Part shown: positions 9,339 through 30,221 of the stretch, one piece after another
Layout: every line of letters starts with the position of its first letter
How positions within the stretch are numbered: the first letter of the stretch is position 1
Source: Salinivirgaceae bacterium
Lineage (GTDB): Bacteria; Bacteroidota; Bacteroidia; Bacteroidales; SZUA-534
Direction of reading: 5' to 3'
Length of the DNA: 37,692 nt
NCBI GenBank assembly: GCA_024405635.1
Contig: JAKSOL010000026.1
Coordinates: 1 to 37,692, forward strand
The notes under the pieces: model-generated
Databases searched by the model: none
The model's input: the letters and a program-made list of their open reading frames with translations, nothing else
What the model was told of the DNA's origin: nothing
Made by a program: the position numbers and the translations under genes

Positions 9339-9464
9339 AGGAAGGAAGAGTTGTTCAGAAATGTTGTTTGATTTTTACAATCGGAAAAAGCATAGGCCTA
9401 TTCCGAATGTGAATTGCAAGTGATTATGTCACCTATTATTAAACAAAAACCAAAAAAACAAAGT

Positions 9465-12400: not shown

Positions 12401-12518
12401 ACGTGGTAACGAAAACGTGGCTACAGCTGCTAGCGGTTACTCAAACAGAACTTACACAATCGCTACAAACACACCACAAACTCGTAGATTCTTGGTAGGA
12501 CTTAACTTGACATTCTAA
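9465..12518 (+). CDS. susC: SusC/RagA TonB-dependent outer-membrane transporter
   Basis: Signal peptide from ATG 9465; N-terminal extension VKGKVVDASNEPIVGATV, plug ILKDASSCAIYGSRG, barrel motif YRADGSSR, terminal GLNLTF. Confidence 0.93.
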   Translation: MKTKLSFLLVLMLLVQVSWAQAQNVKGKVVDASNEPIVGATVVVKGTTNGTATDIDGNFTVNAASDATLVVSFIGYLTEEVAVNGRSSINVTLAEDLKQLGEVVVIGYGAQRKEAVTGSVEHVSDDIIKEVASADVSRSLQGRIAGVVMNQSSSKPGSAMNITIRGTKSFSADNAPLVVVDGIPTSLSLSDINPGDIKSIDILKDASSCAIYGSRGVGGVIVVTTNSGNFNQKAIVAYNGYVGANTVFAKYPMMNGKQLVELRQIAGKYQNGPDEDDENDTDWQDLLYAPGLVTNHDLSVRGGSEKSNYTLSTGYYREEAVLPCQNYSRLNARLAIDQKVGDWLRFSLQSFNGYSVKEGMGLGLYGVLSASPLVDPKNEDGTTKRDFQTAADQSYTITRDVVEDLVANDQWLDESKSFHSNNTGVVEVNIPKIEGLKYRMNIGLDFAVTNTGGYTAQGVWNYSRTTAASASTNYSINNKWSVENLLTYDRTFGNHKIGALALYSAEKTHYHNTYSSTTATASDQFLYYNLGSSSEPKTVSGGMNETGLLSYMGRILYSYDDRYMLNISYRADGSSRLAEGNKWHAYPAVSLGWNIHKEAFMASTENWLNNLKFRLGWGQTSNQAVSPYTTYGSLATVKYNFGDALVQGYYPTETSNPNLGWEFTKGINVGLEFGLFKDRLTGNFEYYNLDTEDNLQAVSLPTTSGFSSYTANVGKINNKGFELSLNGVLVEDFNGLKWEAGFNIYSNKNEIIALASGKKQDEGNYWFVGHSMNVLYDYEYVGLWSQKDVDSGVLAILDNAAEPGDIRVKYTGEYDDNGMPVRKIGSADRVITDMDPKAQGGFNTKLTYKGFDLSVVGIYQVGGKLVSTLHSSFGYLNMLNGRRGNVDVDYWTPENTNARYPNPAGLKSGDNPKYGSTLGIFDAGYCKVRDITLGYSFDSMDGVKKLGINKLRLYATVQNPFVISSKYHKETGLDPETNSRGNENVATAASGYSNRTYTIATNTPQTRRFLVGLNLTF

Positions 12519-12532
12519 AAAATTTGAACAAT

Positions 12533-14749: not shown

Positions 14750-16309
14750 ATGGCAAACAAAGATAAAATCGAACTCCTGATTAATAATCGTGTACAAGCA
14801 CGTAAAGGAGGAGGCGAACAGCGAATAGAAAAGCAACACGAAAAGGGAAAACTTACAGCCCGTGAACGTATTGCTATTTTGCTCGACGAGGGCAGTTTTG
14901 AAGAGTTTGATATGTTTGTAACCCACCGTTGCACCAACTTTGGGATGGAAAAAAGCCATTTCATGGGCGATGGCGTTGTGTGTGGTCATGGTACAATTGA
15001 TGGCCGCGTGGTTTATGTTTATGCACAAGACTTTACCGTTTATGGCGGTTCAATTTCCGAAACCATGTCGGCAAAAATGTGCAAAGTGATGGATATGGCC
15101 ATGAAAGTTGGCGCTCCAGTTATCGGCATCAACGATTCGGGTGGTGCTCGTATTCAAGAGGGTGTTTCAGCCTTAGCTGGTTTCTCAAACATCTTCCAAC
15201 GCAATATCTTGGCATCAGGTGTAGTGCCTCAAATTTCTGCAATTTTTGGTCCATGCGCAGGTGGTGCGGTTTACTCGCCAGCACTAACCGACTTTGTTTT
15301 CATGAGCAAAGACTCTAGCTATATGTTCCTAACCGGACCAAAAGTTGTAAAAACCGTTACCGGCGAAGTGGTTACCGATGCTCAATTAGGTGGCGCTCAA
15401 GTGCATAGCTCAAAATCGGGCGTAGCTCACTTTGTTGCAGAAAGCGAAGAAGAAGGCTTGATGAAAATTCGTCGCTTGTTGTCATTCCTTCCTCAAAACA
15501 ACTTGGAGGAAGCTCCTCTAATGGAGTGCAATGACCCAATCAATCGTCTTGAGGACTCGTTGAACGAAATAATTCCTGAAAACCCAAACAAACCTTACGA
15601 TATGAAACAAGTTATCAATGCAATAGTTGATAACGGCGACTTCCTTGAGGTTCATCAAGATTTTGCAAAAAACATTATCGTTGGTTTTGCTCGTTTCAAC
15701 GGCGCATCAGTGGGTATTGTGGCAAACCAACCAATGTGTATGGCTGGTGTGCTCGATAGCAATGCAGCTCGTAAAGCAGCACGTTTTATCCGTTTCTGCG
15801 ATGCATTTAACATTCCTATTGTAACACTTGAAGATGTGCCAGGTTTCCTACCAGGAACAGGACAAGAATACAACGGTATTATTTCGCATGGAGCAAAAAT
15901 GCTTTATGCATACGGCGAAGCAACTGTACCAAAAGTTACTGTTATTTTGCGCAAAGCCTACGGTGGCGCTTATTGCGTAATGAGTCCAAAAGCATTGCGC
16001 GGCGACATTAACTACGCTTGGCCAACTGCTGAAATTGCAGTTATGGGTGCAGCAGGTGCTGTTGAAATTCTTGAAGGCAAAAGCATTAGCAAAATTGAAG
16101 ACCCAGAAGAAAAGGCTGCATTTATTGCTAAAGCTGAGGCTGAATACACCGAGAAATTTGCTAACCCATACCGCGCTGCCGAATTGGGTTACCTTGACGA
16201 TATTATTGAACCACGAAACACACGTTTCCGTGTTATTAGAGCGCTACAAGTGCTTGCTACCAAAAAAGACTGTATGCCTGCTAAAAAACACTCAAACATT
16301 CCGCTATGA
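14750..16309 (+). CDS. mmdA: Acyl-CoA carboxyltransferase subunit (methylmalonyl-CoA decarboxylase alpha)
   Basis: [39 protein letters not shown], terminal KKHSNIPL; operon with biotin carrier and Na+ pump beta subunit. Confidence 0.9.
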
Positions 16310-17175
16310 GAAAAATTGCAATTATCGCAAGCTTGCTAGTATCGGTGTTTGTAGCATCGGCCCAAAATGCAAGCGACTTGCGCATCAACGAAATTGTTGT
16401 TGACAATCAAAACGGCATAGTTGACGGTTATGGCGACCATACTGGCTGGATTGAGATTTTCAACTCATCGTATAGTTACATTAATATTGGCGGTTTGTTT
16501 ATCAGCTATAACGATAACGACCCCAAAGACCAGTTTATGATTGCCAAAGGTCTTGGCAAATCGCGTTTGGCACCTCGCGAGTACATTGTTTTTTATGCCG
16601 GAAACGGTTCAAAACAAGGTTTCCAATGCATGAACTTTGAACTTAAAGGTGGACAAACAATCAAACTATTCGATAGCAACGGCCGTACTCTTATCGACAG
16701 CGTTGTGTTGCCTGACTCGGTTGCTGCCGATATGGCTTATGCGCGTAAAACCGACGGGGCTGCAGAATTGGTTGTAAAAGCTGCAACTCCGGGAGTGAGC
16801 AACAACATGGTAAAAGGCGCAAAGGTTGATGAGTTTAAAATGCTTGACCCTTATGGTCTTGGTATGATGTGTATCGCTATTTCGGTTGTGTTCTCGGCAT
16901 TGGCAGTGTTGTTCGTATGCTTTAAAATTATGGGCAAGATTGCAACTCGCAAAAAACGTGCTGCTAAGAAATTTGTGGCTCGCAATGCAGAAACCGGACG
17001 TTCTGCTAACTACGAGGTAAATGCTGCTATTACTCTTACACTGTTCCTTTATTCGGCACAGCAACACGACGAGGAAAACACCGTGCTTACTATGCACCGT
17101 GTGAGCCGCAACTATTCGCCTTGGAGTTCTAAAATTTATAGTTTGCGCAAACGCCCTGATGGTAAATCATTTTAA
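16306..17175 (+). CDS. OadG/MmdD-like membrane subunit with N-terminal extracytoplasmic lamin-tail-like domain
   Basis: Signal peptide, LRINEI...WIEIFN (lamin-tail-domain pattern), one TM ([21 protein letters not shown]), C-terminal YSPWSSKIY; ATGA overlap with mmdA. Confidence 0.75.
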
Positions 17176-17195
17176 CCCAAAACAAATTACTCACT

Positions 17196-17645
17196 ATGAA
17201 TACATTCAATTTTAAAATTAACGGAACACAGTACGATACCGAAGTGCTGGAAATAAACGGAAAAGACGCACAAATTAAAGTTAATGGCGTTGTGTACAAT
17301 GTGGAGATAGACGATACCAAGTTTAAATCGCCTGTAGTTTCAAAGCCAGTGGCTCGTCCTGTTGCAGCACAGCCAGTTGCTTCAGCAGCTCCTGTTGCAT
17401 CTGCTCCACAACAATCGCGTGGCGTTGCTGGTCCCGGAAATGTTCAATCGCCACTTCCTGGCACAGTGCTCGATCTTAAGGTTAAAGAGGGTGATGCTGT
17501 TCAAGCAGGCCAATGCCTTATGATTCTTGAGGCTATGAAAATGGAAAACAACATTGAGGCTCCTTGCGCTGGTACTGTTACCAAAATCAACAAGCAAAAG
17601 GGCGACTCAGTAATGGAAGGCGATACTTTAATTGTAATAGGCTAA
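17196..17645 (+). CDS. mmdC: Biotin carboxyl carrier subunit (methylmalonyl-CoA decarboxylase gamma)
   Basis: Pro/Ala linker followed by biotinyl domain with EAMKM. Confidence 0.9.
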   Translation: MNTFNFKINGTQYDTEVLEINGKDAQIKVNGVVYNVEIDDTKFKSPVVSKPVARPVAAQPVASAAPVASAPQQSRGVAGPGNVQSPLPGTVLDLKVKEGDAVQAGQCLMILEAMKMENNIEAPCAGTVTKINKQKGDSVMEGDTLIVIG

Positions 17646-17649
17646 CAAT

Positions 17650-18807
17650 ATGGAAAACAGTTTTCTGAACTTTGTAATAGAGCACCTATTCCAGTTCTTA
17701 TCATACACGGCCTTTGCCAATATGACATTTGGCCACTTGATAATGATTCTGGTAGGTTTGGTGTTTATCTATTTGGCTGTGGCCAAAGAGTTTGAGCCTA
17801 TGCTTTTGCTCCCAATCGGTTTTGGTATGATTGTGGGTAATATTGCTTTTGCTCCTGGATTAAAGATTGGTATTTATGAGGACGGTAGCGTACTTAACTA
17901 TCTGTATTTTGGTGTAGCTCAGGGTGTTTATCCTCCTCTTATCTTTCTTGGAATTGGAGCAATGACCGATTTTTCGTCACTTATTTCAAACCCAAAACTA
18001 ATTTTGATTGGTGCAGCTGCACAGGTTGGCATTTTTGCCGCTTACGCAATTGCTCTTGCTCTTGGTTTTTCAAGTGCTGAGGCTGGTGCAATTGGTATTA
18101 TTGGTGGTGCCGACGGCCCAACTGCTATCTTCTTGTCGTCAAAACTAGCACCCGATTTGATGGGAGCTATTGCGGTTTCGGCATACTCGTATATGGCTTT
18201 GGTTCCAGTTATTCAACCTCCAATTATGCGTTTGCTAACCAACAGCAAAGAGCGTACAATTAAAATGAAACCTCCTCGTGAAGTTTCAAAAACTGAGCGT
18301 GTTATCTTCCCAATCATTGGTATTTTGCTAACCTGCTTAATTGTACCTTCTGGTTTGCCATTGCTTGGTATGTTGTTCTTTGGTAACTTGCTTAAAGAGA
18401 GCATGGTAACAAAACGTTTGGCCGATGCTGCTCGTGGCCCAATTGTCGACACTGTTACCATTTTGATTGGTTTAACTGTAGGTGCATCAACACAAGCAAC
18501 TACATTCCTTACTCCAAAATCGCTAGGAATTTTTGCTTTAGGTGCTTTCTCGTTTGTAATTGCTACATTCTGTGGCGTTATCTTCGTTAAGTTCTTAAAC
18601 TTGTTCCTTAAAGAGGGTAATAAAATCAATCCTCTTATTGGTAACGCAGGTGTATCAGCGGTTCCTGATAGCGCACGTGTGTCGCAGGTTGTAGGTCAAG
18701 AGTACGACAAATCAAACCACTTGCTTATGCATGCAATGGGAGCAAATGTTGCTGGTGTTATTGGTAGCGCTGTTGCTGCCGGTGTACTTTTGAGCTTCTT
18801 GGGATAA
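17650..18807 (+). CDS. mmdB: Na+-translocating decarboxylase beta subunit (OadB/MmdB)
   Basis: Polytopic membrane protein with EPMLLLPIGFG, IGIIGGADGPTAI, AYSYMALVPVIQPP, MGANVAGVIGS. Confidence 0.93.
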   Translation: MENSFLNFVIEHLFQFLSYTAFANMTFGHLIMILVGLVFIYLAVAKEFEPMLLLPIGFGMIVGNIAFAPGLKIGIYEDGSVLNYLYFGVAQGVYPPLIFLGIGAMTDFSSLISNPKLILIGAAAQVGIFAAYAIALALGFSSAEAGAIGIIGGADGPTAIFLSSKLAPDLMGAIAVSAYSYMALVPVIQPPIMRLLTNSKERTIKMKPPREVSKTERVIFPIIGILLTCLIVPSGLPLLGMLFFGNLLKESMVTKRLADAARGPIVDTVTILIGLTVGASTQATTFLTPKSLGIFALGAFSFVIATFCGVIFVKFLNLFLKEGNKINPLIGNAGVSAVPDSARVSQVVGQEYDKSNHLLMHAMGANVAGVIGSAVAAGVLLSFLG

Positions 18808-19977: not shown

Positions 19978-22572
19978 ATGAAAAAACTACTCTTGAATTT
20001 GGCTCTTATTGCAACAACTGGAGCTTTGCTAACAGCTTGTAATACAAAAGAACCATACAAAAATCCAAAACTATCGGCCGAGGAACGTGCAGCCGATTTG
20101 GTAACCCGACTTACACTTGAAGAAAAAGCCGCCTTGATGCAAGACGAATCGGCAGCAGTTGAACGTCTTGGCATTCAGCGTTATGGTTGGTGGAACGAGG
20201 CTCTGCATGGCGTTGCTCGTGCCGGAAAAGCAACCGTTTTTCCTCAAGCAATAGGCATGGCGGCCACATGGGACGACAACGCTGTTTATCGTGCTTTTAC
20301 CGCAGTTAGCGACGAGGCTCGTGCAAAAAATACCGACGACCGTAAAAAAGGTGAATTCAACCGCTATCAAGGTCTTACATTTTGGACTCCAAACGTTAAC
20401 ATTTTTCGCGATCCGCGTTGGGGACGTGGCCAAGAAACATACGGAGAAGACCCATATCTAACTAGCCGCATGGGTGTTAGTGTGGTTCGCGGATTACAAG
20501 GTCCTACCAACACCAAGTACCACAAGGCTCACGCTTGTGCAAAACACTACGCTGTGCATAGCGGACCTGAAAGCAGCCGACACAAATTCAATGTTGATAG
20601 CCTTCCTCAACGTTTGTTGTGGGAAATTTACTTGCCAGCATTTAAAGCATTGGTTTGCGAGGCAAATGTGCGCGAGGTTATGTGCGCATACAATGCTGTT
20701 GATGGCGAACCATGCTGCGGTAACAAACAACTACTAACCAGCATTTTGCGCGACCTCTGGAATTTTGATGGCATTGTAGTTTCCGATTGTTGGGCAATTA
20801 ACGACTTTTATGGCGGACCAGGTCGCGGACACAATCGTTATGCCACCCCTACCGAATCGGGTGCTGCAGCTGTCATTTCTGGAACCGATCTTGAGTGCGG
20901 CTCAACTTTCAAAACACTTACCGAGGCGGTTGAAAAAGGATTTATTACCGAAGACAGAATTAACACTAGCGTTAAACGCTTGCTTACTGCGCGTTTTCAA
21001 CTTGGTTTAATGGACGACGACAAACTTGTTGATTGGACTCGTATTTCGCTCGATACCGTTAATTGCCAAACTCACCAATACTTGGCTTTAGAGATGGCTC
21101 AAAAAAGTATGGTGCTTTTGCAAAATCGTAACAACATTTTGCCTCTCTCAAAAAATGCAAAAGTGGCAGTGGTTGGCCCTAATGCCGACAATCCAACTAT
21201 GCAATGGGGCAATTATAACGGTTTTCCTGCTTACACAATTTCAATTCTCGAGGGCATCCAGTCAAAAAGTGCCGATGTTACTTATGTAAAAGGTTGCGAA
21301 CTGCTTGTAAACGAGAAGTTTGTTAGCTTATACTACAATTGCAAAAGCGAAAAAGGAGTTGGATTTAGCGCAAAATATTGGGACAACACCAACATGCAAG
21401 GCGAGCCTGTTGCAATTGAAAACTACGAAAATCCTCCATTTCTTAACAACGGAGGCGGCACCGTGTTTGCGCCAAATGTGCCTCTTACCGAATTTTCGGG
21501 CAAATTTGAGAGTACTTTTACCGCAACTGCAACCAACGAGGTTGAAATAAGCATTAGTGCCGACGACGAATACAAACTAACGATTGATGGAACCGAAGTT
21601 GCTGCCGCTAAGAGTAATGCTCACGGCCCAACCTCAAAAACATACAAAATGAAAGCCGTGGCTGGAAAAAGCTACAAAATTGAAATTGACTACATTCAAC
21701 ACCAAGACGAAGCATCGTTGAGCTTTTCAATTGGTTACAAAAAACCAACCACACCTAGCGAATTGGTTGCAAGTGTTAAAAACTGCGATGTGGTTGTGTT
21801 TGTAGGCGGCATTTCACCTCGTCTTGAAGGCGAAGAGATGCGTGTCGATTTTGAAGGATTTATTGGTGGCGACCGCACCAACATTGAGTTGCCTGCTGTT
21901 CAACGTCAAATGATTGCAGCTTTGGCTAAGGCGGGTAAAAAAGTAGTGCTTGTTAACTGTAGTGGCAGCGCAATGGGATTGGTTCCCGAGTCGAAAAACT
22001 GCGAGGCAATTTTGCAAGCATGGTATCCGGGCGAAGCTGGTGGACAAGCTGTTGCCGATGTGCTATTTGGCGACTACAATCCTGCAGGTCGTTTGCCTGT
22101 AACTTTCTACAAATCAGCCAGTCAGTTGCCCGATTTTGAAGATTATGGATTCGATGGTCGTACCTATATGTATATGACACAAGAACCATTGTTCCCATTT
22201 GGTTTTGGCTTGAGCTACACAACATTTGATTATGTTAAAGCCGAATGGCAAAAATCAACCATTAAAAAAGGTGAGTCAGCAAAATTGAGCCTAACCATAA
22301 GCAATACAGGTAAAATTAGTGGCGACGAGGTTGCTCAAGTTTATATTAAACGAAACGACGACACCAACGGCCCAAGTAAAATGTTGCGCTACTTTAAACG
22401 TGTGAACATTGCATCTGGTGCTCAAACAGTGCTTGATATTGAGTTGAATGCCGATGCGTTCCGTTTCTTCAACAGCAAAACAAACGACATGGACATTCTT
22501 CCTGGCGATTATACAGTTTACTACGGAGGTAACTCTCGCGATTTAAAATCGTTGAGCCTGACCATTGAATAA
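19978..22572 (+). CDS. GH3 beta-xylosidase lipoprotein with PA14 insertion and FnIII-like C-terminus (Xyl3A-like)
   Basis: Lipobox LLTAC; WWNEALHGV, FRDPRWGRGQETYGEDP, KHYAVHSGPE, nucleophile VVSDCWA; PA14-like insert; AWYPGEAGG. Confidence 0.9.
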   Translation: MKKLLLNLALIATTGALLTACNTKEPYKNPKLSAEERAADLVTRLTLEEKAALMQDESAAVERLGIQRYGWWNEALHGVARAGKATVFPQAIGMAATWDDNAVYRAFTAVSDEARAKNTDDRKKGEFNRYQGLTFWTPNVNIFRDPRWGRGQETYGEDPYLTSRMGVSVVRGLQGPTNTKYHKAHACAKHYAVHSGPESSRHKFNVDSLPQRLLWEIYLPAFKALVCEANVREVMCAYNAVDGEPCCGNKQLLTSILRDLWNFDGIVVSDCWAINDFYGGPGRGHNRYATPTESGAAAVISGTDLECGSTFKTLTEAVEKGFITEDRINTSVKRLLTARFQLGLMDDDKLVDWTRISLDTVNCQTHQYLALEMAQKSMVLLQNRNNILPLSKNAKVAVVGPNADNPTMQWGNYNGFPAYTISILEGIQSKSADVTYVKGCELLVNEKFVSLYYNCKSEKGVGFSAKYWDNTNMQGEPVAIENYENPPFLNNGGGTVFAPNVPLTEFSGKFESTFTATATNEVEISISADDEYKLTIDGTEVAAAKSNAHGPTSKTYKMKAVAGKSYKIEIDYIQHQDEASLSFSIGYKKPTTPSELVASVKNCDVVVFVGGISPRLEGEEMRVDFEGFIGGDRTNIELPAVQRQMIAALAKAGKKVVLVNCSGSAMGLVPESKNCEAILQAWYPGEAGGQAVADVLFGDYNPAGRLPVTFYKSASQLPDFEDYGFDGRTYMYMTQEPLFPFGFGLSYTTFDYVKAEWQKSTIKKGESAKLSLTISNTGKISGDEVAQVYIKRNDDTNGPSKMLRYFKRVNIASGAQTVLDIELNADAFRFFNSKTNDMDILPGDYTVYYGGNSRDLKSLSLTIE

Positions 22573-22611
22573 CATCGTTTTTTTTACCTAAAAATTTGTT
22601 GTTGTTTTTGA

Positions 22612-23019
22612 TTAGATTTGTTCGATGTCGCCAAGTCCGTCTGTTGCACCTTCCAGTTCAACGGTTTCGATAGATGGCACGTCAATCTGCTCATAATCAC
22701 CGTTACCGTTCATTAGGTAGGTTACACCGTTCTCGTCTTGATACAACTCGCCCATTGATGCGTCGCCAAGTCCAGCCATTGATGGCAAGTACTCTTTTGC
22801 ATAACCTGAAATGATTGAGCCAGCCATACCCAAGAACAAACCTTGTGCTACTGACGATTTGCAAATAATTGCACCAGCCAATGATGCTACACCTGTTGCG
22901 ATGCGACCGATGTTAGAATTAAGTTTTGACACTCTTGACTGCAATGCACTTACAGCCACCGAACCCAAAACCATACCGCCAGCCATTAGGGCAGGCTTTT
23001 TGAAATCTTTTACTTCCAT
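22612..23019 (-). CDS. Hypothetical small membrane protein with acidic tail and repeated Gly motifs (putative virion component)
   Basis: 135 aa; Gly/Ala-rich hydrophobic segments in residues 10-72, acidic C-terminus, motifs MAGG, MAGLGD, MNGNGD, DGLGD; 30 bp downstream of the 456-aa gene. Confidence 0.65.
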   Translation of the reverse strand: MEVKDFKKPALMAGGMVLGSVAVSALQSRVSKLNSNIGRIATGVASLAGAIICKSSVAQGLFLGMAGSIISGYAKEYLPSMAGLGDASMGELYQDENGVTYLMNGNGDYEQIDVPSIETVELEGATDGLGDIEQI

Positions 23020-23049
23020 TTAAGTTTCCTCTTCTTCATGTAAAAAAAT

Positions 23050-24420
23050 TTAACGTCGTTTTGTTATTATATATACTAAACCAGCAATGCCTAAACCTCC
23101 AAGTAACCAAGTAGATATAGATGCTTGCTGTTTAATTTCAGTTGTTTGTAATTGTAGATTTTGCAATGCGCTTTCCATTCTCGCCTGTGTTTGTGCTGCC
23201 GAATCGCTTTCGGTTGCAGCTTTGTCGAGTTGGTCTTTGACGCTATTTATTGCGGTATCTACCTTGTTTTGGATAGACTGATTAACGTTGCTCAAACTTG
23301 TTACAATAGCGCGATTGCTGCTTTTAACGGTTGCTACTGTTTCAGCATTTGCAGCGGCTGTGGCGTTTGTTACAGTTTTAAGAGTTGGCGCAATATCCTG
23401 AATAGTTAAAGGCTCTTGCCCCACATTCTCCATTTCGGCATCTACTTTTTTATCTATATCCTTGCCTACTTTTGCAGCCTTTTTTGCGGCTTTATTTGCC
23501 TTTCTATTTTTAACTGCGCTAATAAGTTTGCCGCCAACATTTTTAGCCAGCGAAACAGCCTCTGTTATCCAGCCAAGTTCGCCGTTTACAATTTGCAATG
23601 GTGTCGCTACCCAAACATCGTTAGTTGCACTTGCACCGTTAAGACTATCAACGTAACGTTTGTTTTTGTCGCCGCGAATTGCCCAACTTCCATCAGTACA
23701 GCGCATTGCCCAAGTACCAAGCGCATGATTGTAGAATACAGGCGAAAATGCACGATCAGAACGACGACTAAAAACTGGTTCGTCGGTTTCGCCAAGTCCG
23801 TTAAGTCCGCTATTGTTTGCTCCGCCTAAAATTGTCTTGTCGTATGCTTGCAAGTATTTCTTTTCCTCGTTGTAATTATCCATAACGTCGTCAATTACAA
23901 TATACTCGCTGCGTACATTCAGGTTTGCGTTGTTGATTTTAGGCACAATAACGTAAATATGTTGATAAGCACCACGTTGTTTATATGAACACATACGTAA
24001 CGAGTGCGGTATGTTCAAGTTGCAAAGAATAGTGCTAATGAAAATAGAATAGCAATCGCAATCTACACCACTTTTGCGATCTGCCCAAGTGCGTACAGGC
24101 TGACGCAATTCCTCAATCATTGGATTGTCTTTATGATATTGGATATGGTCAAATACAAATTGCCAAATTGCTTTACAAGTTGCATCAAGTGTTGCGCGTT
24201 TTAGCAATACTGCTATTTGCGCGGTTTGATGTTTAGTGCGGCTTATGATGTCAGGCATTAAACGGTTAATAGTATCAAATTGATCAACTCCCATACGCAA
24301 CACTGGATTGGTGCGAATTGGTTGACCGAAATAACGGTTATATTCAGCGCCTGATTTTATTTTTCGGCTGCCGTTGCTTGCATATCCTAATGCTCCGTTA
24401 AGTTCTTGCGTTAGTAACAT
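23050..24420 (-). CDS. Transglutaminase-like cysteine protease domain protein with helical stalk and C-terminal membrane anchor
   Basis: IWQFVFDHIQY helix, GVDCDCYS (Cys121), QHIYV (His154), IVIDD (Asp177) in transglutaminase-like order; Ala/Gln-rich helical region; C-terminal WLLGGLGIAGLVYIITKRR. Confidence 0.7.
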   Translation of the reverse strand: MLLTQELNGALGYASNGSRKIKSGAEYNRYFGQPIRTNPVLRMGVDQFDTINRLMPDIISRTKHQTAQIAVLLKRATLDATCKAIWQFVFDHIQYHKDNPMIEELRQPVRTWADRKSGVDCDCYSIFISTILCNLNIPHSLRMCSYKQRGAYQHIYVIVPKINNANLNVRSEYIVIDDVMDNYNEEKKYLQAYDKTILGGANNSGLNGLGETDEPVFSRRSDRAFSPVFYNHALGTWAMRCTDGSWAIRGDKNKRYVDSLNGASATNDVWVATPLQIVNGELGWITEAVSLAKNVGGKLISAVKNRKANKAAKKAAKVGKDIDKKVDAEMENVGQEPLTIQDIAPTLKTVTNATAAANAETVATVKSSNRAIVTSLSNVNQSIQNKVDTAINSVKDQLDKAATESDSAAQTQARMESALQNLQLQTTEIKQQASISTWLLGGLGIAGLVYIITKRR

Positions 24421-24480
24421 TCGTTTTTTTGCTCCTTGCTCCTATTAAAACGAACCAAAGTTGCTGAAATACAATATATT

Positions 24481-24540
24481 ACTTTCTCATTTTTGCCCAT
24501 TATTGTACGTTTTTGCTCGTTATTGCTCATTATATGTCGT
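24481..24540. repeat. Degenerate 10-bp tandem repeat array
   Basis: Consecutive 10-mers: actttctcat, ttttgcccat, tattgtacgt, ttttgctcgt, tattgctcat, tatatgtcgt. Confidence 0.65.
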
Positions 24541-24710
24541 ATTATTGTGGCACAAATGTTGTTAGTGTAAAAAACTGACTGATAGCAAGTTATGGCGCGA
24601 TTACGCCAATGTTAAATTTAACTACCTAAAAATGATTTTTTGACGCTTAAAAATTTGTTTTTAGGTGTTTTTTTTAGTATTTTTAATAATGATTTTAACT
24701 GATTAGCAAT

Positions 24711-24893
24711 ATGGATAACAACAAAATAACCAAATCAACCCAGTGTATCACTCGCGAAGAACTTGCAGCACGATACGGCGTTTGTCGTCGAACATTGTAT
24801 TCGTGGCTCAATAAAGCAGGAATCCAATTGAAACAAAAAAGCCGCATAACTCCAAAAGAATTAGCGGCTATTGTTGCGGTGTTAGGGGAATAG
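24711..24893 (+). CDS. Small helix-turn-helix DNA-binding protein (excisionase/MerR-like)
   Basis: 60 aa, ITREELAARYGVCRRTLYSWL HTH pattern; divergent from the 456-aa gene. Confidence 0.7.
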   Translation: MDNNKITKSTQCITREELAARYGVCRRTLYSWLNKAGIQLKQKSRITPKELAAIVAVLGE

Positions 24894-24894
24894 A
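24840..24894 (+). repeat. 55-bp direct repeat, copy 1 (3' end of the HTH gene)
   Basis: AGCCGCATAACTCCAAAAGAATTAGCGGCTATTGTTGCGGTGTTAGGGGAATAGA; 54/55 identical to 25507-25561. Confidence 0.95.
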
Positions 24895-24901
24895 ATTTTA
24901 T

Positions 24902-24909
24902 TAAATTTG
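24902..24909 (+). promoter_or_regulatory. -7 promoter element of the TA operon
   Basis: TAAATTTG = TAnnTTTG, 22 nt before ATG 24932; no clear -33 box. Confidence 0.5.
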
Positions 24910-24931
24910 TGCAATTAAACAATAATGTATT

Positions 24932-25156
24932 ATGGCAAGAATTACAATCAATTACAAAAACAATGCTGCAACTCGTTCTATTATTGAATCTCTTGTAAAT
25001 TATGGAGTGTTTACAATAGTGGAAACCGAAGAAGAAGAACGATTTAGAATAGAAATGAAAAAGGCTTTTAAGTCAGCAGAAGTGGCTATTAACAAAATTA
25101 AAAACCACAATGGAAAAGGTGTAAAGAAGTTGGAGGATATTTTGAATGAAATATGA
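24932..25156 (+). CDS. Putative antitoxin
   Basis: 74 aa, overlaps the downstream RelE-type toxin gene by 11 nt; C-terminal KKLEDILNEI resembles the tails of such antitoxins. Confidence 0.65.
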   Translation: MARITINYKNNAATRSIIESLVNYGVFTIVETEEEERFRIEMKKAFKSAEVAINKIKNHNGKGVKKLEDILNEI

Positions 25157-25502
25157 GTTTTATGTTACTAACGAATTTAACAAGCAACTAAAAAGATTAT
25201 CAAAAAAATACAAATCTATTACACTTGATTTGCTCAATTTTAGAAATGAATTTGAACAAAAATACCCTCTTGTAGGCGTTGATTTAGGCGGTGGATATAG
25301 AAAAATAAGATTAGAAATAAAATCTAAAAACAAAGGCAAAAGTGGCGGTGCAAGAATTATAACATACGATTTATGTTTGAATATCGAAGAAAATACAAAA
25401 AAAGTACTTTTAGTTACAATTTTTGATAAAAGCGACTTTGAGAATATAAACGATAAACTATATAAAAAAGTTGCTATGGAATACTTATTTAGTATGCTAT
25501 AA
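25146..25502 (+). CDS. RelE/ParE-superfamily toxin (mRNA interferase type)
   Basis: EFNKQLKRLSKKY...DLGGGYRKIRL...KGKSGGARIITY...LVTIFDKS pattern. Confidence 0.85.
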   Translation: MKYEFYVTNEFNKQLKRLSKKYKSITLDLLNFRNEFEQKYPLVGVDLGGGYRKIRLEIKSKNKGKSGGARIITYDLCLNIEENTKKVLLVTIFDKSDFENINDKLYKKVAMEYLFSML

Positions 25503-25506
25503 AAAT

Positions 25507-25561
25507 AGCCGCATAACTCCAAAAGAATTAGCGGCTATTGTTGCGGTGTTGGGGGAATAGA
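25507..25561 (+). repeat. 55-bp direct repeat, copy 2
   Basis: Matches 24840-24894 except one A/G change (TTA/TTG, synonymous in the HTH frame). Confidence 0.95.
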
Positions 25562-25659
25562 CTAATTACGCAAATCTATAATACTTAATCTTTAACAAGC
25601 GTGTATTCTTTATAACGTACTTTGTCAGCGCCTGTGCCAAATTCTTTCCATCGATAGTT

Positions 25660-25956
25660 TCATACTCTTATAGTATTAAGTTTGAATTTTTTTACTTTGT
25701 TTTCTTTGGTTAATCTAACTTGCTTGCCACATACCAATTGTTTTAGTATTGCGTACAACTGGCTCTTTTTACCGTCGTCGATAAAAAGAACTCTCATAAA
25801 ATCATCTAACGTTAAGTAGCACCTGTATTTGTTGAATACTATCAACACTTTTTCGCGTAAAGTCATATCTTTACCGTTTGATTGTTTTATTTGAAGTTGC
25901 TTGTCGTACACAATTTTTTGCAATCGGTGTATTTCCTTAATTGGTAGCGTTATCAT
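25660..25956 (-). CDS. Hypothetical basic protein, possible winged helix
   Basis: 98 aa; ATGA overlap with the upstream ORF; TLREKVLIVF...LTLDDF...QLYAILKQLV..KQVRL resembles wHTH topology. Confidence 0.5.
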   Translation of the reverse strand: MITLPIKEIHRLQKIVYDKQLQIKQSNGKDMTLREKVLIVFNKYRCYLTLDDFMRVLFIDDGKKSQLYAILKQLVCGKQVRLTKENKVKKFKLNTIRV

Positions 25957-26192
25957 ACAAGATTTACTTTTTTGATTATGGTATTTGTCTTGTTGTCTAT
26001 AACCAAATAGTTCTTTATATCAGTCCTACCTAATACCAGTTTTCGCTCCATTGCTGCTATAACTTTGTCAACTGGCTTTTTATCGTTAAACGGTAGGTTG
26101 TAAAATTCGTTTCGGTTGTCGGTGTAACGATGGTAAAGCACCATTTTTATAATTGCGTTTTGCTTGCGCTCGCTATAATCAATCTTCATCAT
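25953..26192 (-). CDS. Hypothetical phage-like protein
   Basis: 79 aa, overlaps both neighbouring ORFs in a coupled minus-strand run. Confidence 0.5.
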   Translation of the reverse strand: MMKIDYSERKQNAIIKMVLYHRYTDNRNEFYNLPFNDKKPVDKVIAAMERKLVLGRTDIKNYLVIDNKTNTIIKKVNLV

Positions 26193-26370
26193 ATCGGTCG
26201 AGTATATCGGTTAAATGTATAAGCCAGCTTAAATAGCATAGTAACAGCAGGTTTAAGTGGGTTAAATATGGAAGTCTGTAACGTAAGTGTATGTAATTTA
26301 CTCGCTCGATGTTTACAACAACACCAAGCAAGTAAAATACAATCATAGATATAACAAATGCAGCTTTCAT
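26179..26370 (-). CDS. Hypothetical small membrane protein
   Basis: 63 aa with two hydrophobic segments; starts 1 nt after the upstream stop. Confidence 0.45.
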   Translation of the reverse strand: MKAAFVISMIVFYLLGVVVNIERVNYIHLRYRLPYLTHLNLLLLCYLSWLIHLTDILDRYDED

Positions 26371-26371
26371 T

Positions 26372-26782
26372 TTAGTACAATTTGTTTATTGTTTCGTCGG
26401 CAATTGGTTCTCTGTACTGGCTTGTTACGAATACAGTTGTTACATAGTTCTTACTGATTTTTCCGTTCTGAATTGCCGAAAATTCACTGTCGTAAATACG
26501 ACGGTCTAAATATATTTTGTTGCTATATCTGAAAATGTTAGTGTATCCAGTTATAACGGCTGGTATTTCCTCGCACATAAACAAGTCGTTTTCGTCTATT
26601 GAATACTTGTCAAACGCACCATCGTGATAGTATGTAAATACTTCCTCGCCAGTTGTAAACTCAACCGCAGCAACAATGCTGTTGTTTTTGCCCAATAATT
26701 CGCCTAAAAAGCGTGCTGGTCTTCCGTCGCGAGTGCAAATTGGTTCGCCATTTTGGGCGGCTTCTAAATCAAATTTTTTCAT
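26372..26782 (-). CDS. Hypothetical phage protein
   Basis: N-terminal MKKFDLEAAQNGEPICTRDGRPAR...DLFM pattern recalled from phage hypothetical proteins. Confidence 0.65.
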   Translation of the reverse strand: MKKFDLEAAQNGEPICTRDGRPARFLGELLGKNNSIVAAVEFTTGEEVFTYYHDGAFDKYSIDENDLFMCEEIPAVITGYTNIFRYSNKIYLDRRIYDSEFSAIQNGKISKNYVTTVFVTSQYREPIADETINKLY

Positions 26783-26893
26783 TTTTGTAGTGTTTTATTT
26801 ATTGCTTGCGCCATAGGTGCGCCACGTTATTGCGGCGTACTTGTGGCGTTTTTATTTATTCAATATCAGTTTCCTGTTTTATTGTTATGCAAT

Positions 26894-27238
26894 TCAACTA
26901 TCATCGTGCTTCAGCGAGTTCAGACGCTTCTTTAGGTCGTTTTTTATCTCATCTTGTATCTGCTTTCTTCCCCATTCTATTGCATCTGAAAATGTAGGCT
27001 GACGATTAAATCCTTGAGAAAAGAACCAATCACTAAACGCTACTTCTCTGTCGTATTCCTCTTTTGTAAGATTTTTGGGGTGATTTAGTTGATTTTGCTC
27101 ATACTGCTCATCTTTCCACTCAGCCATTTTCAAAATCGCAGATTGAATTTCTTGCCTCTGTGATTCATACTTATGAAAACACAGACCATCGTCAAATAAA
27201 TTCCATGCAATTTCTTTTGCTTTCTCTTCGTTTGTCAT
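26894..27238 (-). CDS. Hypothetical phage protein
   Basis: 114 aa; MTNEEKAKEIA...AILKMAEWKDEQ pattern recalled from Bacteroidales phage accessory proteins. Confidence 0.6.
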   Translation of the reverse strand: MTNEEKAKEIAWNLFDDGLCFHKYESQRQEIQSAILKMAEWKDEQYEQNQLNHPKNLTKEEYDREVAFSDWFFSQGFNRQPTFSDAIEWGRKQIQDEIKNDLKKRLNSLKHDDS

Positions 27239-27357
27239 AGTTTTATTGTTCGTTTAACTTTTTTCAGTATATTTTTTATGAAAAAACTACCTTCGTGGTC
27301 GTTGGTTAAATGTGCTGTTATGTAGCGTAACCAATTTAATATCAACAAAATAAATAT

Positions 27358-27969
27358 ATGCAACAACTACCGTCGCGACTGCTCGATAATGTGGTGAACG
27401 AGTTTAATAAACTGCCGGGCATAGGAAAAAAAACAGCACTACGTTTAACGTTATTTATGCTAAACCAAAGTGTTGAAGATGCAAAAATGTTCACTTCGGC
27501 TATCGACCAAATGAAAAACGAGGTGCGCATCTGTCCGCAGTGCCATAATATTGCCGAAAACGATTTGTGCGAAATATGCAGTAATCCAAAGCGAGATGCA
27601 TCGTTGATTTGTGTGGTAGAAACCATTCGCGAGTTAATTGCAATTGAAAACACAGGTCAATACCGAGGCTTGTATCATGTGCTTGGTGGCCGCATTTCGC
27701 CCATGGATGGCATTGGTCCTCAAAATTTGAATATCAGCACGTTAGAGCAACGGGTGGCAGCTGGGGGAATTGCCGAAGTTATTCTTGCAACTAGCACAAC
27801 CATTGAAGGCGACACTACCAACTTTTACCTTTTCCGTAGGTTGAGTGCCTACAATGTGCCTGTTTCAACATTGGCTCGTGGCATTAGTGTTGGCGACGAA
27901 ATTGAATATGCCGACGAGATTACTCTTGGTCGCTCGTTGTTAAATAGGGTTCCTTATCAAGGTAAGTAA
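27358..27969 (+). CDS. recR: Recombination mediator RecR
   Basis: [12 protein letters not shown] HhH, CPQCHN...CEIC zinc finger, Toprim [19 protein letters not shown]. Confidence 0.96.
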
Positions 27970-28731
27970 ATGAAAATAAGCGTTATAGGTTCGGGTAATG
28001 TGGCAACAACTCTATCGGTTGCTTTGTCGCAATTCAACACAATTGATGCGGTGTGCAGTTCAACTGCAAATCATGCTCAAAAATTGGCGCAACGTGTTGG
28101 CGCTATGGCAGTTGCGGCTGTCGAAAATATGCCAGTCGATAGCGATTTGTACCTTATTATGGTTAGCGACAATGCAGTTGAAAATGTTGCAGCAAAACTT
28201 CCGCAGGTTAGGGGAGTGGTGGCGCACACAGCAGGAAGCATCAATATGAATGTGTTACAACGCTTTGATAATCACGGAGTTTTTTATCCTATGCAGTCGT
28301 TCACTGCTGGTAGGCAAATCAACACTTCAACCATTCCGTTTTGTATCGAAGCTTCGTCGCAAATGGTTGAACAACAGTTGGTTGAATTGGCAAAACAGTT
28401 ATCGCCAACTGTAATGCTAATGAGTTCGGCACAACGCGCACAATGCCATTTGGCCGCTGTGTTTTCAAGCAATTTTGTAAACCACATGTATGCAGCTGCG
28501 GCTCACATAATGCAAAATGCCAATTTGCCGTTCAATATGTTGCGACCTTTGTTAGTCGAAACGCTCGACAAGGCGTTTGCCCTTGGTCCCGATGTGGCGC
28601 AAACTGGCCCTGCACGCCGTGGCGATACCGTTGTTACCAACCGTCAGCGCGAGGCTTTGCCTACTGCCGACCTTCAAAAAATGTATAGTTTTGTTACCGA
28701 AAGCATAATGAAAAAATATGGGAAACTTTAA
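27970..28731 (+). CDS. Rossmann-like / DUF2520 domain oxidoreductase
   Basis: VIGSGNVA, HTAGS, FYPMQSF, HLAAVFSSNF, QTGPARRGD. Confidence 0.88.
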   Translation: MKISVIGSGNVATTLSVALSQFNTIDAVCSSTANHAQKLAQRVGAMAVAAVENMPVDSDLYLIMVSDNAVENVAAKLPQVRGVVAHTAGSINMNVLQRFDNHGVFYPMQSFTAGRQINTSTIPFCIEASSQMVEQQLVELAKQLSPTVMLMSSAQRAQCHLAAVFSSNFVNHMYAAAAHIMQNANLPFNMLRPLLVETLDKAFALGPDVAQTGPARRGDTVVTNRQREALPTADLQKMYSFVTESIMKKYGKL

Positions 28732-29248
28732 AGAAGATTTGAAAAACGTGAAGGCTTTTGCCTTCGATATAGATGGTGTATGTACCAATGCTACAATAAT
28801 TTGCCTTGCCGACGGACAGCAAGTTCGCCAATCGAATACTCGCGATGGCTTTGCGCTTCGTTTTGCAGTTAAACGTGGTTTTCCGTTGGCCATTATCAGC
28901 GCTGGGTACAACAACGTTGGCGTTATAAAACGATTTGAATCGCTTGGCATTACCGACCTTTACATTGGTAGCCACGCCAAAATGGATGCCTTTGCCGATT
29001 TTAAGCAAAAGCATAATCTTACCAATGCCGATGTGCTTTATATGGGCGACGATATTCCTGATTATCCGTTACTTAAGATTGTTGGAATGCCAACTTGTCC
29101 GCACGATGCAATGCCCGAGGCAAAGGCCGTTTCTCGCTACATTTCGCCTTACAAAGGTGGCGAGGGTTGTGTTCGCGATGTGATTGAACAGGTTTTGCGT
29201 GCTCAAGGTAAGTGGGTTAATCTCGATAACGAACCTTATTTCTTGTAA
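28718..29248 (+). CDS. kdsC: KdsC-family HAD phosphatase (KDO 8-P phosphatase-like)
   Basis: FDIDGV, RDG, YMGDDIPD, GGEGCVRDVIE. Confidence 0.85.
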   Translation: MGNFKEDLKNVKAFAFDIDGVCTNATIICLADGQQVRQSNTRDGFALRFAVKRGFPLAIISAGYNNVGVIKRFESLGITDLYIGSHAKMDAFADFKQKHNLTNADVLYMGDDIPDYPLLKIVGMPTCPHDAMPEAKAVSRYISPYKGGEGCVRDVIEQVLRAQGKWVNLDNEPYFL

Positions 29249-29249
29249 T

Positions 29250-30221
29250 ATGCTGAAATACTTGCAAATAGTTAGGCTGCCAAACTTGCTAATGATACCG
29301 CTTACAATGTATTTGTTGCGGTGGTGCATTGTTAAGCCAATGTTGGACTATCAGTACGCTTATCAATTGCAACATACAGTAAATCTGCAGTTTAGCAATT
29401 CGTTGTTTTGGGTGCTTGTGCTGCTCAATATGTTTCTTGGTGCTGCCGGTTACGTTATTAACGACTATTTTGACCGCCGCATCGATTCAGTAAACCGAAA
29501 AAATAGTGTGTTGGTTGGGCGCAACATTTCAAATCGTATGGCCATTGCAATGTATGTGATTTTTAATGTTATAGCAATGTTTTTGGCTTGTGTGCTTGCG
29601 TATAACATGCACAGTTTCAATGTGTTGCTAATGTATATAATGCTGGCTGGCATATTTTGGTTCTACTCAACTACATACAAACGCCAACTTTTGCTTGGCA
29701 ATGTTATAGTGTCGGTGTGTACGGCGCTTGTGCCTTTGCAAGTTGCTTATTTTGAGATAGTTTCGCTAAACAGTTCGTATGCTTCTGAAATGCTATACAA
29801 CAATTTGACCTTTACTCCAATAATTGTTTGGATAATGGCGTTTGCTGTGTTCGCATTTTTGCTGAACATGATGCGCGAAATAGTTAAAGACATTGAAGAT
29901 ATTGAGGGCGACGGCACTTATGGTTGCGACACTTTGCCTTTGGTTTACGGCATCGGTGTGGCAAAATCGGTTGTAGTTGCCATTGGTATAGTTGTAGCAC
30001 TCATCACATTGGCGGCAATGCTGTTTGTTCTTACCGATTTGCTGTCGCAGTTGTACCTTGCGTTGCTTGTGTTGTTGCCAACTGTTATTTCGGTTGTGCT
30101 TACCATTCGAGCCAATTGCAAAAAAAATTATTCGGTCATTAGCTTTATCCTCAAACTAGTAATGCTCACAGGTGTGCTTTATGCCTTGTTGGCCCGACAA
30201 ATAATGATGTTTGTGTTGTAG
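29250..30221 (+). CDS. UbiA-family prenyltransferase (DGGGP synthase-like)
   Basis: Start MLKYLQIVRLPNL; Asp-rich motifs INDYFDRRID and REIVKDIEDIEGD; multiple TM helices. Confidence 0.88.
   Translation: MLKYLQIVRLPNLLMIPLTMYLLRWCIVKPMLDYQYAYQLQHTVNLQFSNSLFWVLVLLNMFLGAAGYVINDYFDRRIDSVNRKNSVLVGRNISNRMAIAMYVIFNVIAMFLACVLAYNMHSFNVLLMYIMLAGIFWFYSTTYKRQLLLGNVIVSVCTALVPLQVAYFEIVSLNSSYASEMLYNNLTFTPIIVWIMAFAVFAFLLNMMREIVKDIEDIEGDGTYGCDTLPLVYGIGVAKSVVVAIGIVVALITLAAMLFVLTDLLSQLYLALLVLLPTVISVVLTIRANCKKNYSVISFILKLVMLTGVLYALLARQIMMFVL

Follow-up and report, generated by a model that had tools for sequence, protein, structure and literature searches.

A strain-variable island between a GH3 gene and recR in a Salinivirgaceae genome, a probable provirus remnant related to SSIP-1-like elements of Bacteroidota

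What kind of genetic element leaves, between two host genes, an intact gene pair for a peptidase and a membrane protein together with small virus-like genes, and nothing recognizable as part of a virus particle? The question is raised by ten open reading frames (ORFs) located between a GH3 glycosidase gene (19978-22572, plus strand) and recR (27358-27969, plus strand) of a Salinivirgaceae bacterium (contig JAKSOL010000026.1 of assembly GCA_024405635.1). The window, which is the whole stretch of 37,692 nt analysed here, is one entire contig of a 2.66-Mb, 36-contig assembly with a completeness rating of 99.8%. A first-pass annotation, made from the letters of the sequence, described ten ORFs, all of which are present, and proposed that they are a remnant or a split piece of a jelly-roll provirus of the PRD1-adenovirus lineage, or else a domesticated module. 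The analysis reported here suggests that the island is probably a non-autonomous provirus remnant, descended from a Bacteroidota family of tailless membrane viruses similar to SSIP-1 (Salisaeta icosahedral phage 1).

The peptidase gene and the operon of its relatives

The island and the two genes that identify it are as follows.

22594-27278: island, a 4,685-bp strain-variable insertion, delimited by empty-site contigs in metagenome runs X3 and X7
23050-24420, minus strand: p456, predicted transglutaminase-fold cysteine peptidase domain with a coiled coil and a C-terminal membrane anchor
22612-23019, minus strand: p135, small Gly/Ala/Ser-rich hydrophobic protein, homologue of cluster c14

As the first-pass annotation stated, both ORFs of this membrane/protease module are intact; they are full length, and the catalytic residues are conserved. 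At E ≤ 0.001, 147 proteins of comparable length are related to p456, the nearest being 57% identical over 58% of its length. In an alignment of 27 p456 sequences, a conserved N-terminal domain of about 230 aa is followed by a variable low-complexity helical stretch and a hydrophobic C-terminal anchor, which in p456 is a transmembrane segment at residues 435-453. The residues D120-C121-D122-C123-Y124, Q153-H154 and D177 are invariant among the 27 sequences, including the Cys-His-Asp triad of C121, H154 and D177. Residues 20-200 are modelled by AlphaFold with a predicted local distance difference test (pLDDT) score of 80-95. In VIA comparisons this domain matches a putative protease of Parabacteroides (3kd4) with a Z of 11.6 (root-mean-square deviation 2.6, 134 residues aligned), the pseudomurein endoisopeptidase PeiP (Z 9.9), LapG (Z 9.7) and PeiW (Z 8.8), and Foldseek, which gives a probability of 1.0 to LapG, agrees with VIA at weaker E-values. 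The modelled N-terminal domain is assigned to the transglutaminase-like (papain-fold) cysteine peptidase superfamily. p456 itself stays under the gathering cut-off of PF04473 (DUF553; 14.0 bits, E 0.036, versus 20.5 bits), and one relative (L087:9983-11848) exceeds it with 25.0 bits. p135 matches the hidden Markov model (HMM) of cluster c14 at E 7.6e-14 and has tblastn matches in three related loci (E 7e-10 in L014, 5e-9 in L013 and 3e-4 in L021), although it has no Pfam or PHROG family match. Its nearest ESM Atlas clusters are unnamed and mostly virus-labelled (scores 0.92-0.93), which is a lead only.

Relatives of p456 were collected by a degenerate-pattern scan of one genome per species, in which 356 of the 373 pattern-matching stretches encode a p456 relative; the best 80 of these 356 were kept. 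The record titles of the 80 loci point to Bacteroidota or a Bacteroidota lineage in 79 cases and to Bifidobacterium in one. This last locus (L056, labelled uncultured Bifidobacterium sp.) has a module of the Cytophagales/Chitinophagales type described below, and, all other carriers being Bacteroidota, it is probably mis-binned. IMG/VR gave four more loci, and five of 60 relatives of the window's genome have a match; scans of IMG/VR and of JGI metagenome contigs for close relatives of p456 alone gave no match. From 90 loci, 1,969 ORFs were called and clustered, giving 44 clusters.

In these loci the p456 homologue (cluster c0) stands at the head of a long conserved co-directional operon, which occurs in two related layouts. 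In the Marinilabiliales/Flammeovirga layout, the nearest to the window, a divergent helix-turn-helix (HTH) gene (c30) is followed by c38, c0, c14, c1, c11, c23, c21, c16, c3, c7 and c15, the last being a GH108 endolysin, and then by a GTA_holin_3TM holin and an ArdC-N/zincin polyvalent protein; the early region of this layout holds c37 (a CI-like repressor), c28, c29 and c43. The Cytophagales/Chitinophagales layout is c12, c0, c6, c1, c4, c10 or c17, c5, c8, c13, c3, c7, c19, c9, c18 and c22, in which c19 is an Amidase_2 and an ImmA/IrrE-HTH regulator lies upstream. Elsewhere the elements carry a tyrosine integrase, a primase-helicase-like protein, a DnaC-like loader and Lin1244-type replication proteins, and their lysins belong to GH108, Amidase_2 and CHAP (Pfam and PHROGs). 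The most conserved gene of the operon is c1, encoding a protein of 200-280 aa. Of 73 testable loci, that is, loci with at least 3 kb of downstream sequence, 72 have it no more than 5 kb downstream of c0 (11 loci that were too short or had no called c0 ORF were excluded); the sole exception, L084, retains c4 to c7. In the extended loci from the window's relatives, c1 follows the peptidase gene in six of six.

Inspection of homologue neighbourhoods had been proposed as a check. These neighbourhoods are not ordinary chromosomal loci and showed none of the hallmark genes of tailed phages; they belong to temperate elements or to a plasmid, and they include repressors, an integrase, replication genes, a holin and endolysins. 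IMG/VR classes two of the records as proviruses, and the element of Saccharicrinis aurantiacus is estimated at roughly 27 kb between host-type flanking genes. A complete peptidase-to-lysin module is also present on the 49-kb Persicobacter diffluens plasmid pPD8 (loci L021, L110 and L111), together with two Rep3 initiators, ParA/ParB, a type I restriction-modification system and an AbiEii-like ATPase, so that pPD8 may be a phage-plasmid. Almost no core operon protein has a Pfam or PHROG match. Neither terminase, portal nor major head families were found in the scanned ORFs of the related elements, which included 70 otherwise unassigned ORFs from two IMG/VR records (rated 92% and 98% complete) and from one flank. 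PHROG matches with a tail or virion label are limited to a "tail fiber protein/lysozyme" label under an endolysin match and three weak "virion structural protein" matches (E 2e-6 to 3e-7) of one 639-aa ORF outside the module.

The island appears as a truncated copy of this operon. p135 (c14), the HTH gene (c30) and p79 (c29) have the order and orientation of the nearest layout, and the host GH3 gene comes directly after p135, where relatives carry c1. A tblastn search of the window's own assembly with all members of the 44 clusters found only c0 and c14, on this contig, apart from matches of c35 and c36 elsewhere that are unrelated, those of c36 being integrase-like and on other contigs; c15, c19, c7 and c9 have no match, and c1 occurs neither in the island nor anywhere else in the 2.66-Mb assembly. 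No lysis, integrase or replication gene is represented among the ten proteins of the island. The first-pass annotation had likewise recognized no terminase, portal, tail, capsid, packaging ATPase or integrase, and scans of the ten proteins with Pfam (E ≤ 0.1) and PHROGs agree, weak matches of the HTH protein aside. Since the capsid candidate and the lysis, integrase and replication genes are missing from the genome, the island is a remnant rather than one part of a split element, and the suggestion of a split piece is dropped. For the same reason it would be unable to form particles or to move by itself. That the island derives from this Bacteroidota element family is very likely.

Queries with SSIP-1 ORFs and with the large polyvalent and ATPase proteins added only one match in the assembly, a phrog_6891 ATPase on another contig, C34. 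Encoded at C34:86683-87543, this ATPase shares 42% identity with that of an IMG/VR element; its gene lies in a separate small phage-like region at about 80-98 kb (L117), with QueC-like and GTP-cyclohydrolase genes, a CI-like repressor and a minor-tail-like fragment. The ATPase was rejected as a detached piece of the island, since its neighbours are unrelated and no other module cluster is nearby.

Links to phage SSIP-1 and the capsid candidate

SSIP-1 is the only deposited phage that matches p456. This phage is icosahedral, has no tail and contains a membrane inside the particle (PMC6356626; PMC6260650), and a 2019 review states that its genome "hardly shares any similarity" with GenBank sequences (PMC6356626). 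The p456 family (c0) matches SSIP-1 gp34 by HMM at E 1.9e-15 and by hhalign with a probability of 96% (E 4.4e-9), the DCD/H/D catalytic motifs being aligned. Further matches connect c15 with the endolysin gp31 (E 3.6e-20), c21 with SSIP-1 ORF56 (E 1.9e-38), the element ATPases with gp40 (E 4.4e-11, 5.4e-9 and 3.3e-6) and the polyvalent proteins with gp43 (E 1.6e-32 and 8.6e-38). By hhalign, c1 is linked to gp45 (probability 70%, E 4e-5, 143 columns) and c23 to gp48 (probability 72%, E 3.3e-5); for c14, c6, c11, c4, c5, c10 and c17 the probability never exceeded 5% against ten SSIP-1 proteins. Thus the elements match seven SSIP-1 genes, and the SSIP-1 record gives the label "structural protein" to five of them (gp34, gp40, gp43, gp45 and gp48). 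Apart from these matches, one IMG/VR record (G065; L113:4118-5011) has a PAPS-reductase-like gene (phrog_424, E 4e-26), and SSIP-1 gp25 is also a PAPS reductase.

The c1 protein is the capsid candidate of the family. A model built from a 71-sequence alignment (pLDDT 89, predicted template-modelling score 0.85) is an eight-stranded beta sandwich. In a Foldseek search of the PDB, the Sulfolobus polyhedral virus 1 (SPV1) capsid protein comes first (E 3.9e-4, probability 1.0), followed by double jelly-roll capsid proteins of large DNA viruses, but also by furin P-domains. SPV1 is also the top VIA match (Z 8.3, 151 of 178 residues aligned), and HCIV-1 (Z 7.5), VP17 and VP16 of P23-77 (Z 6.6 and 6.0) and HHIV-2 (Z 5.9) are among the others. 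The c1 profile matches 1,476 clusters (50% identity) at E ≤ 0.001, and 1,157 of them at E ≤ 1e-10, among 1.84 billion representatives. When two c1 representatives were compared by tblastn with 50,697 deposited phage genomes, neither gave a match at E ≤ 0.01. As modelled, c1 is a single jelly roll and not the double one of the PRD1 type. The proposal of a remnant of a jelly-roll tailless provirus is supported, every check suggested in the first-pass annotation having turned out in its favour, while the PRD1-type affiliation is not. An ATPase had also been expected near the homologues, and several elements do have a P-loop ATPase homologous to gp40 (phrog_6891), but none was recognized as a member of the FtsK/A32 family.

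Taken together, these links favour a parent family of SSIP-1-like, tailless, membrane-containing icosahedral viruses, which would form virions. No account of SSIP-1-like proviruses in Bacteroidota was found in a literature search that left the original SSIP-1 paper and supplementary files aside, so that a prior description is possible.

Borders, control region and cargo of the island

The remaining features of the island and its flanks are listed below.

19978-22572, plus strand: host GH3 glycosidase gene, left flank, Pfam-confirmed; a terminator-like hairpin is absent in island-bearing strains
27358-27969, plus strand: host recR gene, right flank, Pfam-confirmed
24421-24710: divergent control region between p456 and the HTH gene, 290 bp, with repeats and a putative operator role
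24711-24893, plus strand: 60-aa HTH regulator (ANT 26.0 bits, cut-off 25.3; HTH_17 25.8 bits), homologue of cluster c30
24835-24894: 60-nt direct repeat, copy 1, comprising the last 56 nt of the HTH coding sequence, the stop codon and one base
24932-25502, plus strand: toxin-antitoxin (TA) cassette, consisting of a 74-aa antitoxin-like ORF and a 118-aa RelE-family toxin
24932-25156, plus strand: 74-aa antitoxin-like ORF, overlapping the toxin gene by 11 nt
25146-25502, plus strand: 118-aa RelE-like toxin (PF06296 and phrog_5869)
25502-25561: 60-nt direct repeat, copy 2, beginning at the final base of the RelE stop codon
25660-27238, minus strand: five small ORFs (p98, p79, p63, p136 and p114), interpreted as early-region leftovers

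Contigs from four public gut-metagenome runs (X2, X3, X7 and X8) were compared over 20500-29500. In X3, a 3,178-nt contig spans 20733-22593 and continues at 27279-28555, and X7, which is from a different study, has the identical 22593/27279 joint. These contigs provide the empty form of the GH3-recR interval that had been proposed as a check, and they place the borders at 22594 and 27278, close to the extent of 22573-27240 first given. The island sequence itself is present in X2, X7 and X8, an X2 contig over 22587-24529 having seven differences in 1,943 nt. Both forms are therefore circulating among strains. Contig cover is patchy in some runs (for example, X2 at 26219-27121), and a gap in cover does not mean absence.

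In the empty form, 40 other nucleotides sit where the 4,685 bp of the island would be. They contain a 13-bp hairpin followed by eight U (-15.1 kcal/mol, z -6.06), and none of 200 shuffled sequences folds as well; by its sequence, this filler would be a typical intrinsic terminator for GH3 that the island has replaced. The gap from the GH3 stop (22572) to the p135 stop (22612) is 39 bp in the occupied form, and the first-pass observation that it holds no hairpin is borne out by a terminator scan and by the fold of the junction, which is no better than that of shuffled sequence (z -0.89). With the terminator presumably lost, transcripts that start from GH3 may extend into p135 in antisense orientation. 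The island ends showed neither direct nor inverted repeats, the window has no tRNA gene, and the filler cannot be traced in the window at up to three mismatches; the event was a replacement rather than a clean site-specific insertion. The G+C content drops to 0.30 around 24.5-26 kb, compared with 0.41-0.45 in the flanks, and the genome has no second copy of the island. Farther upstream, host genes at 9414-14524 and 14750-18807 encode a SusC/SusD pair, a carboxyl-transferase and an oxaloacetate-decarboxylase beta-subunit; the SusC/SusD pair identifies the host as a member of the Bacteroidota.

The 60-aa HTH protein matches the c30 HMM at E 8.5e-10, and in four related loci (L020, L030, L033 and L062) tblastn places a match to it on the strand opposite to the peptidase gene and 700-900 bp upstream of that gene. 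The HTH seen at first pass is present as a conserved divergent regulator of these elements, although the attribute "Xis-like" is unproven; its matches to terminase-small-subunit PHROGs are weak (E 0.002-0.03), and the HTH is generic. The control region that it shares with p456 has phased direct repeats of about 10 nt (TTTTTGCYCRTTA-like, 3-4 copies) at 24426, 24490, 24510 and 24520 (span 24426-24532) and an 18-nt inverted repeat at 24624-24666, and the strain in X7 has one additional 20-nt unit after 24487. The phased and inverted repeats are possible operator sites.

The TA pair of the first-pass annotation is confirmed. The toxin exceeds the PF06296 cut-off (27.3 versus 27.0 bits, E 4.7e-6) and matches phrog_5869 at E 1.3e-12, and the upstream ORF, which has no family match, overlaps it; by this domain and gene arrangement the pair is classified as a type II TA system of the RelE family. 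The cassette is bracketed by two copies of a 60-nt direct repeat, 97% identical to each other, which fits entry by Campbell-type recombination of a TA-carrying molecule at the 3' end of the HTH gene. In a Carboxylicivirga metagenome-assembled genome, a RelE gene (L026:8525-8866, 42% identical) likewise lies upstream of the peptidase operon, on the strand of its c30 HTH gene, so that the region upstream of the operon may be a recurrent site for TA cargo.

The five small ORFs were first described as coupled, phage-like hypotheticals. Four of them overlap or abut, but p114 is set apart by 111 nt, and detectable relatives were found for only two of the five: a profile search links p79 to cluster c29, in its N-terminal half (E 1e-7), and p136 is weakly related to proteins from tailed phages of Burkholderia, Achromobacter, Bordetella and Vibrio (best E 7e-9). 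p114 and p98 have no tblastn match in phage records, and neither the five ORFs nor the antitoxin has one in 91 loci at E ≤ 1e-3.

A sequence of events that would account for the island can be proposed. In intact relatives, a small HTH regulator is divergent from a long late operon, with a shared control region, and the operon encodes, in order, the membrane-anchored peptidase, the small membrane protein, the single jelly-roll capsid candidate, small proteins, endolysins and a holin; in several elements the genes of a giant polyvalent protein homologous to gp43 and of an ATPase homologous to gp40 are nearby. In the parent virus, p456 was probably a cell-wall peptidase anchored in the virion membrane for entry or exit, as judged from its transglutaminase fold and likeness to PeiP and PeiW, from the anchor at its C-terminus and from the assignment of its SSIP-1 homologue to the virion, and p135 (c14) may have been its small membrane partner. 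An internal deletion would have left the regulator, the peptidase, the small membrane protein and the early-region leftovers. The RelE cassette would have entered by recombination where the regulator gene ends, with the 60-nt repeat as a trace, and the island presumably replaced the GH3 terminator; some strains carry it and others do not. Expression of p456 and p135 under the HTH regulator may continue, contributing to no particle, and the TA cassette may help to retain the island.

Alternative readings and comparison with known systems

That the pair was kept for a host function, such as superinfection exclusion, envelope remodelling or competitor killing, is an unlikely alternative to simple decay. 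The intactness of p456 and p135, with conserved Cys-His-Asp residues and anchor, would also be expected of a domesticated pair, and the divergent control region with its repeats is intact as well. The island occurs in metagenomes of at least two further studies with few differences, as in X2, and the TA cassette could stabilize it; low strain divergence may, however, just reflect recent common ancestry, and other strains do without the island. Moreover, the pair is part of the long operon in nearly all testable loci, and no second stand-alone pair was seen.

A similarly low probability is given to the view that the parent family is not viral, but a plasmid- or island-borne module for envelope modification and lysis (vesicle or DNA release, or a bacteriocin-like function), of which the window has a fragment. 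Several points weigh here against the viral reading of the family. Particles have been seen for no member of it. The Pfam and PHROG scans of the relatives' ORFs found no FtsK/HerA (A32-like) family and recognized no packaging ATPase family. phrog_6891 resembles Sak4-like and primase-helicase ATPases as well as gp40, and one copy is in an unrelated region of the window's own genome, so that the gp40-like ATPase need not be a packaging enzyme. A module on a plasmid with Rep3 and ParAB, as on pPD8, would also fit a non-viral plasmid-borne module, the holin family is named after gene-transfer agents, and the two c1 representatives are unmatched among the deposited phage genomes. Jelly rolls are common folds and the Z scores of c1 are moderate: a phage tail fibre (Z 7.7) and a monooxygenase (Z 7.5), which are not viral capsid proteins, are near-equal in VIA, where a Z below 8 may mean merely a shared arrangement, and the BFVD matches are generic jelly-roll proteins, with one unnamed 211-aa entry among them. 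The hhalign links of c1 to gp45 and of c23 to gp48 are modest, and there is no near-identical intact element with which the island, by sequence, could be compared directly. On the other hand, a non-viral module would hardly be expected to have seven genes in common with an isolated phage, five of them annotated as virion structural, or a c1 fold that best matches capsid proteins of membrane viruses by two methods. The repressors, integrases and replication modules are typical of temperate phages, and two records are classed as proviruses by IMG/VR.

An autonomous miniature mobile element or a phage satellite borrowing from a helper would be compact and strain-variable, with a regulator, a TA cassette and one virion-type gene pair, as the island is. 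This is highly improbable, since the island has neither integrase, transposase, replication gene nor terminal repeats, its borders are a 40-nt replacement and not a target duplication, it is single-copy in the genome, and no similar stand-alone unit was seen among about 90 loci. Least probable of all is a remnant of an ordinary tailed prophage, for which the weak p136 relatives, a MuF_C domain in the polyvalent protein of L013 and a c21 relative in the record of Faecalibacterium phage FP_Brigit could be cited, as the island has no terminase, portal, HK97-type capsid or tail protein and neither do the scanned ORFs of the relatives, the "tail fiber protein/lysozyme" label and three weak matches aside.

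A provirus remnant of SSIP-1-like ancestry is therefore preferred. By itself, the island is an ordinary decaying provirus fragment, and its value is as a pointer to widespread unannotated elements. The balance tips slightly towards a broader picture, in which SSIP-1 has many relatives: a very large and diverse family of temperate elements, some of them on plasmids and probably with membrane virions, would be spread throughout Bacteroidota, in marine Cytophagales and Marinilabiliales as well as in gut Bacteroidales, missed by phage-annotation resources, and the peptidase in the window is perhaps kept by the host. If the elements are viruses, tailless membrane phages would be common and overlooked in Bacteroidota genomes, gut lineages included. 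Intact copies exist in cultured hosts, namely Saccharicrinis aurantiacus, Persicobacter diffluens (pPD8) and strains of Flammeovirga, Pontibacter, Ohtaekwangia and Aquimarina.

Among known systems, SSIP-1 is the closest to the intact Bacteroidota elements, and an integrase and a repressor are present in both. Counterparts are detectable for seven of its 57 annotated features, with identities of 22-34%, and the Bacteroidota elements appear smaller. Its gp34 (304 aa) does not align to the long coiled coil and membrane anchor of p456. The window holds just one gene shared with SSIP-1: judged as an SSIP-1-like provirus, the island has the membrane-anchored peptidase of the gp34 type and lacks the jelly-roll, lysis, integrase and replication genes. 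The peptidase domain has the same predicted fold as PeiP, PeiW, LapG and the putative proteases 3kd4 (Parabacteroides) and 3isr (Cytophaga), although sequence identity to p456 is only 8-14%; the coiled coil and the C-terminal anchor are specific to the p456 family among these transglutaminase-fold peptidases.

The predicted c1 fold is eight-stranded, as are the capsid proteins of SPV1 (Portogloboviridae), HCIV-1 and HHIV-2 (Sphaerolipoviridae) and VP16 and VP17 of P23-77, with Z values of 6-8.3 and no sequence similarity. Sphaerolipoviruses typically have a second capsid protein and a packaging ATPase, whereas neither was identified in the relatives, and the c1 gene itself is absent from the window. 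The tailless phages of the PRD1/PM2 type (Tectiviridae, Corticoviridae and Autolykiviridae) have many small membrane proteins and virion-associated lytic enzymes. The gene layout of the Bacteroidota elements is similar as far as the general layout of those families goes, but the candidate of the elements is a single jelly roll of 200-280 aa, and no ATPase of the FtsK/A32 family was found. In surveys of double jelly-roll proviruses, the passages that touch on Bacteroidetes mention them only for an FLiP-like single-stranded DNA group (PMC5894146).

In its present state the island resembles cryptic prophage remnants with TA cassettes, being likewise strain-variable, low in G+C, devoid of mobility and structural genes, and equipped with a RelE-type TA pair. 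It differs from cryptic tailed-prophage remnants in that its ancestor was probably not a tailed phage and in that its TA cassette is bracketed by a 60-nt repeat derived from the 3' end of the regulator gene.

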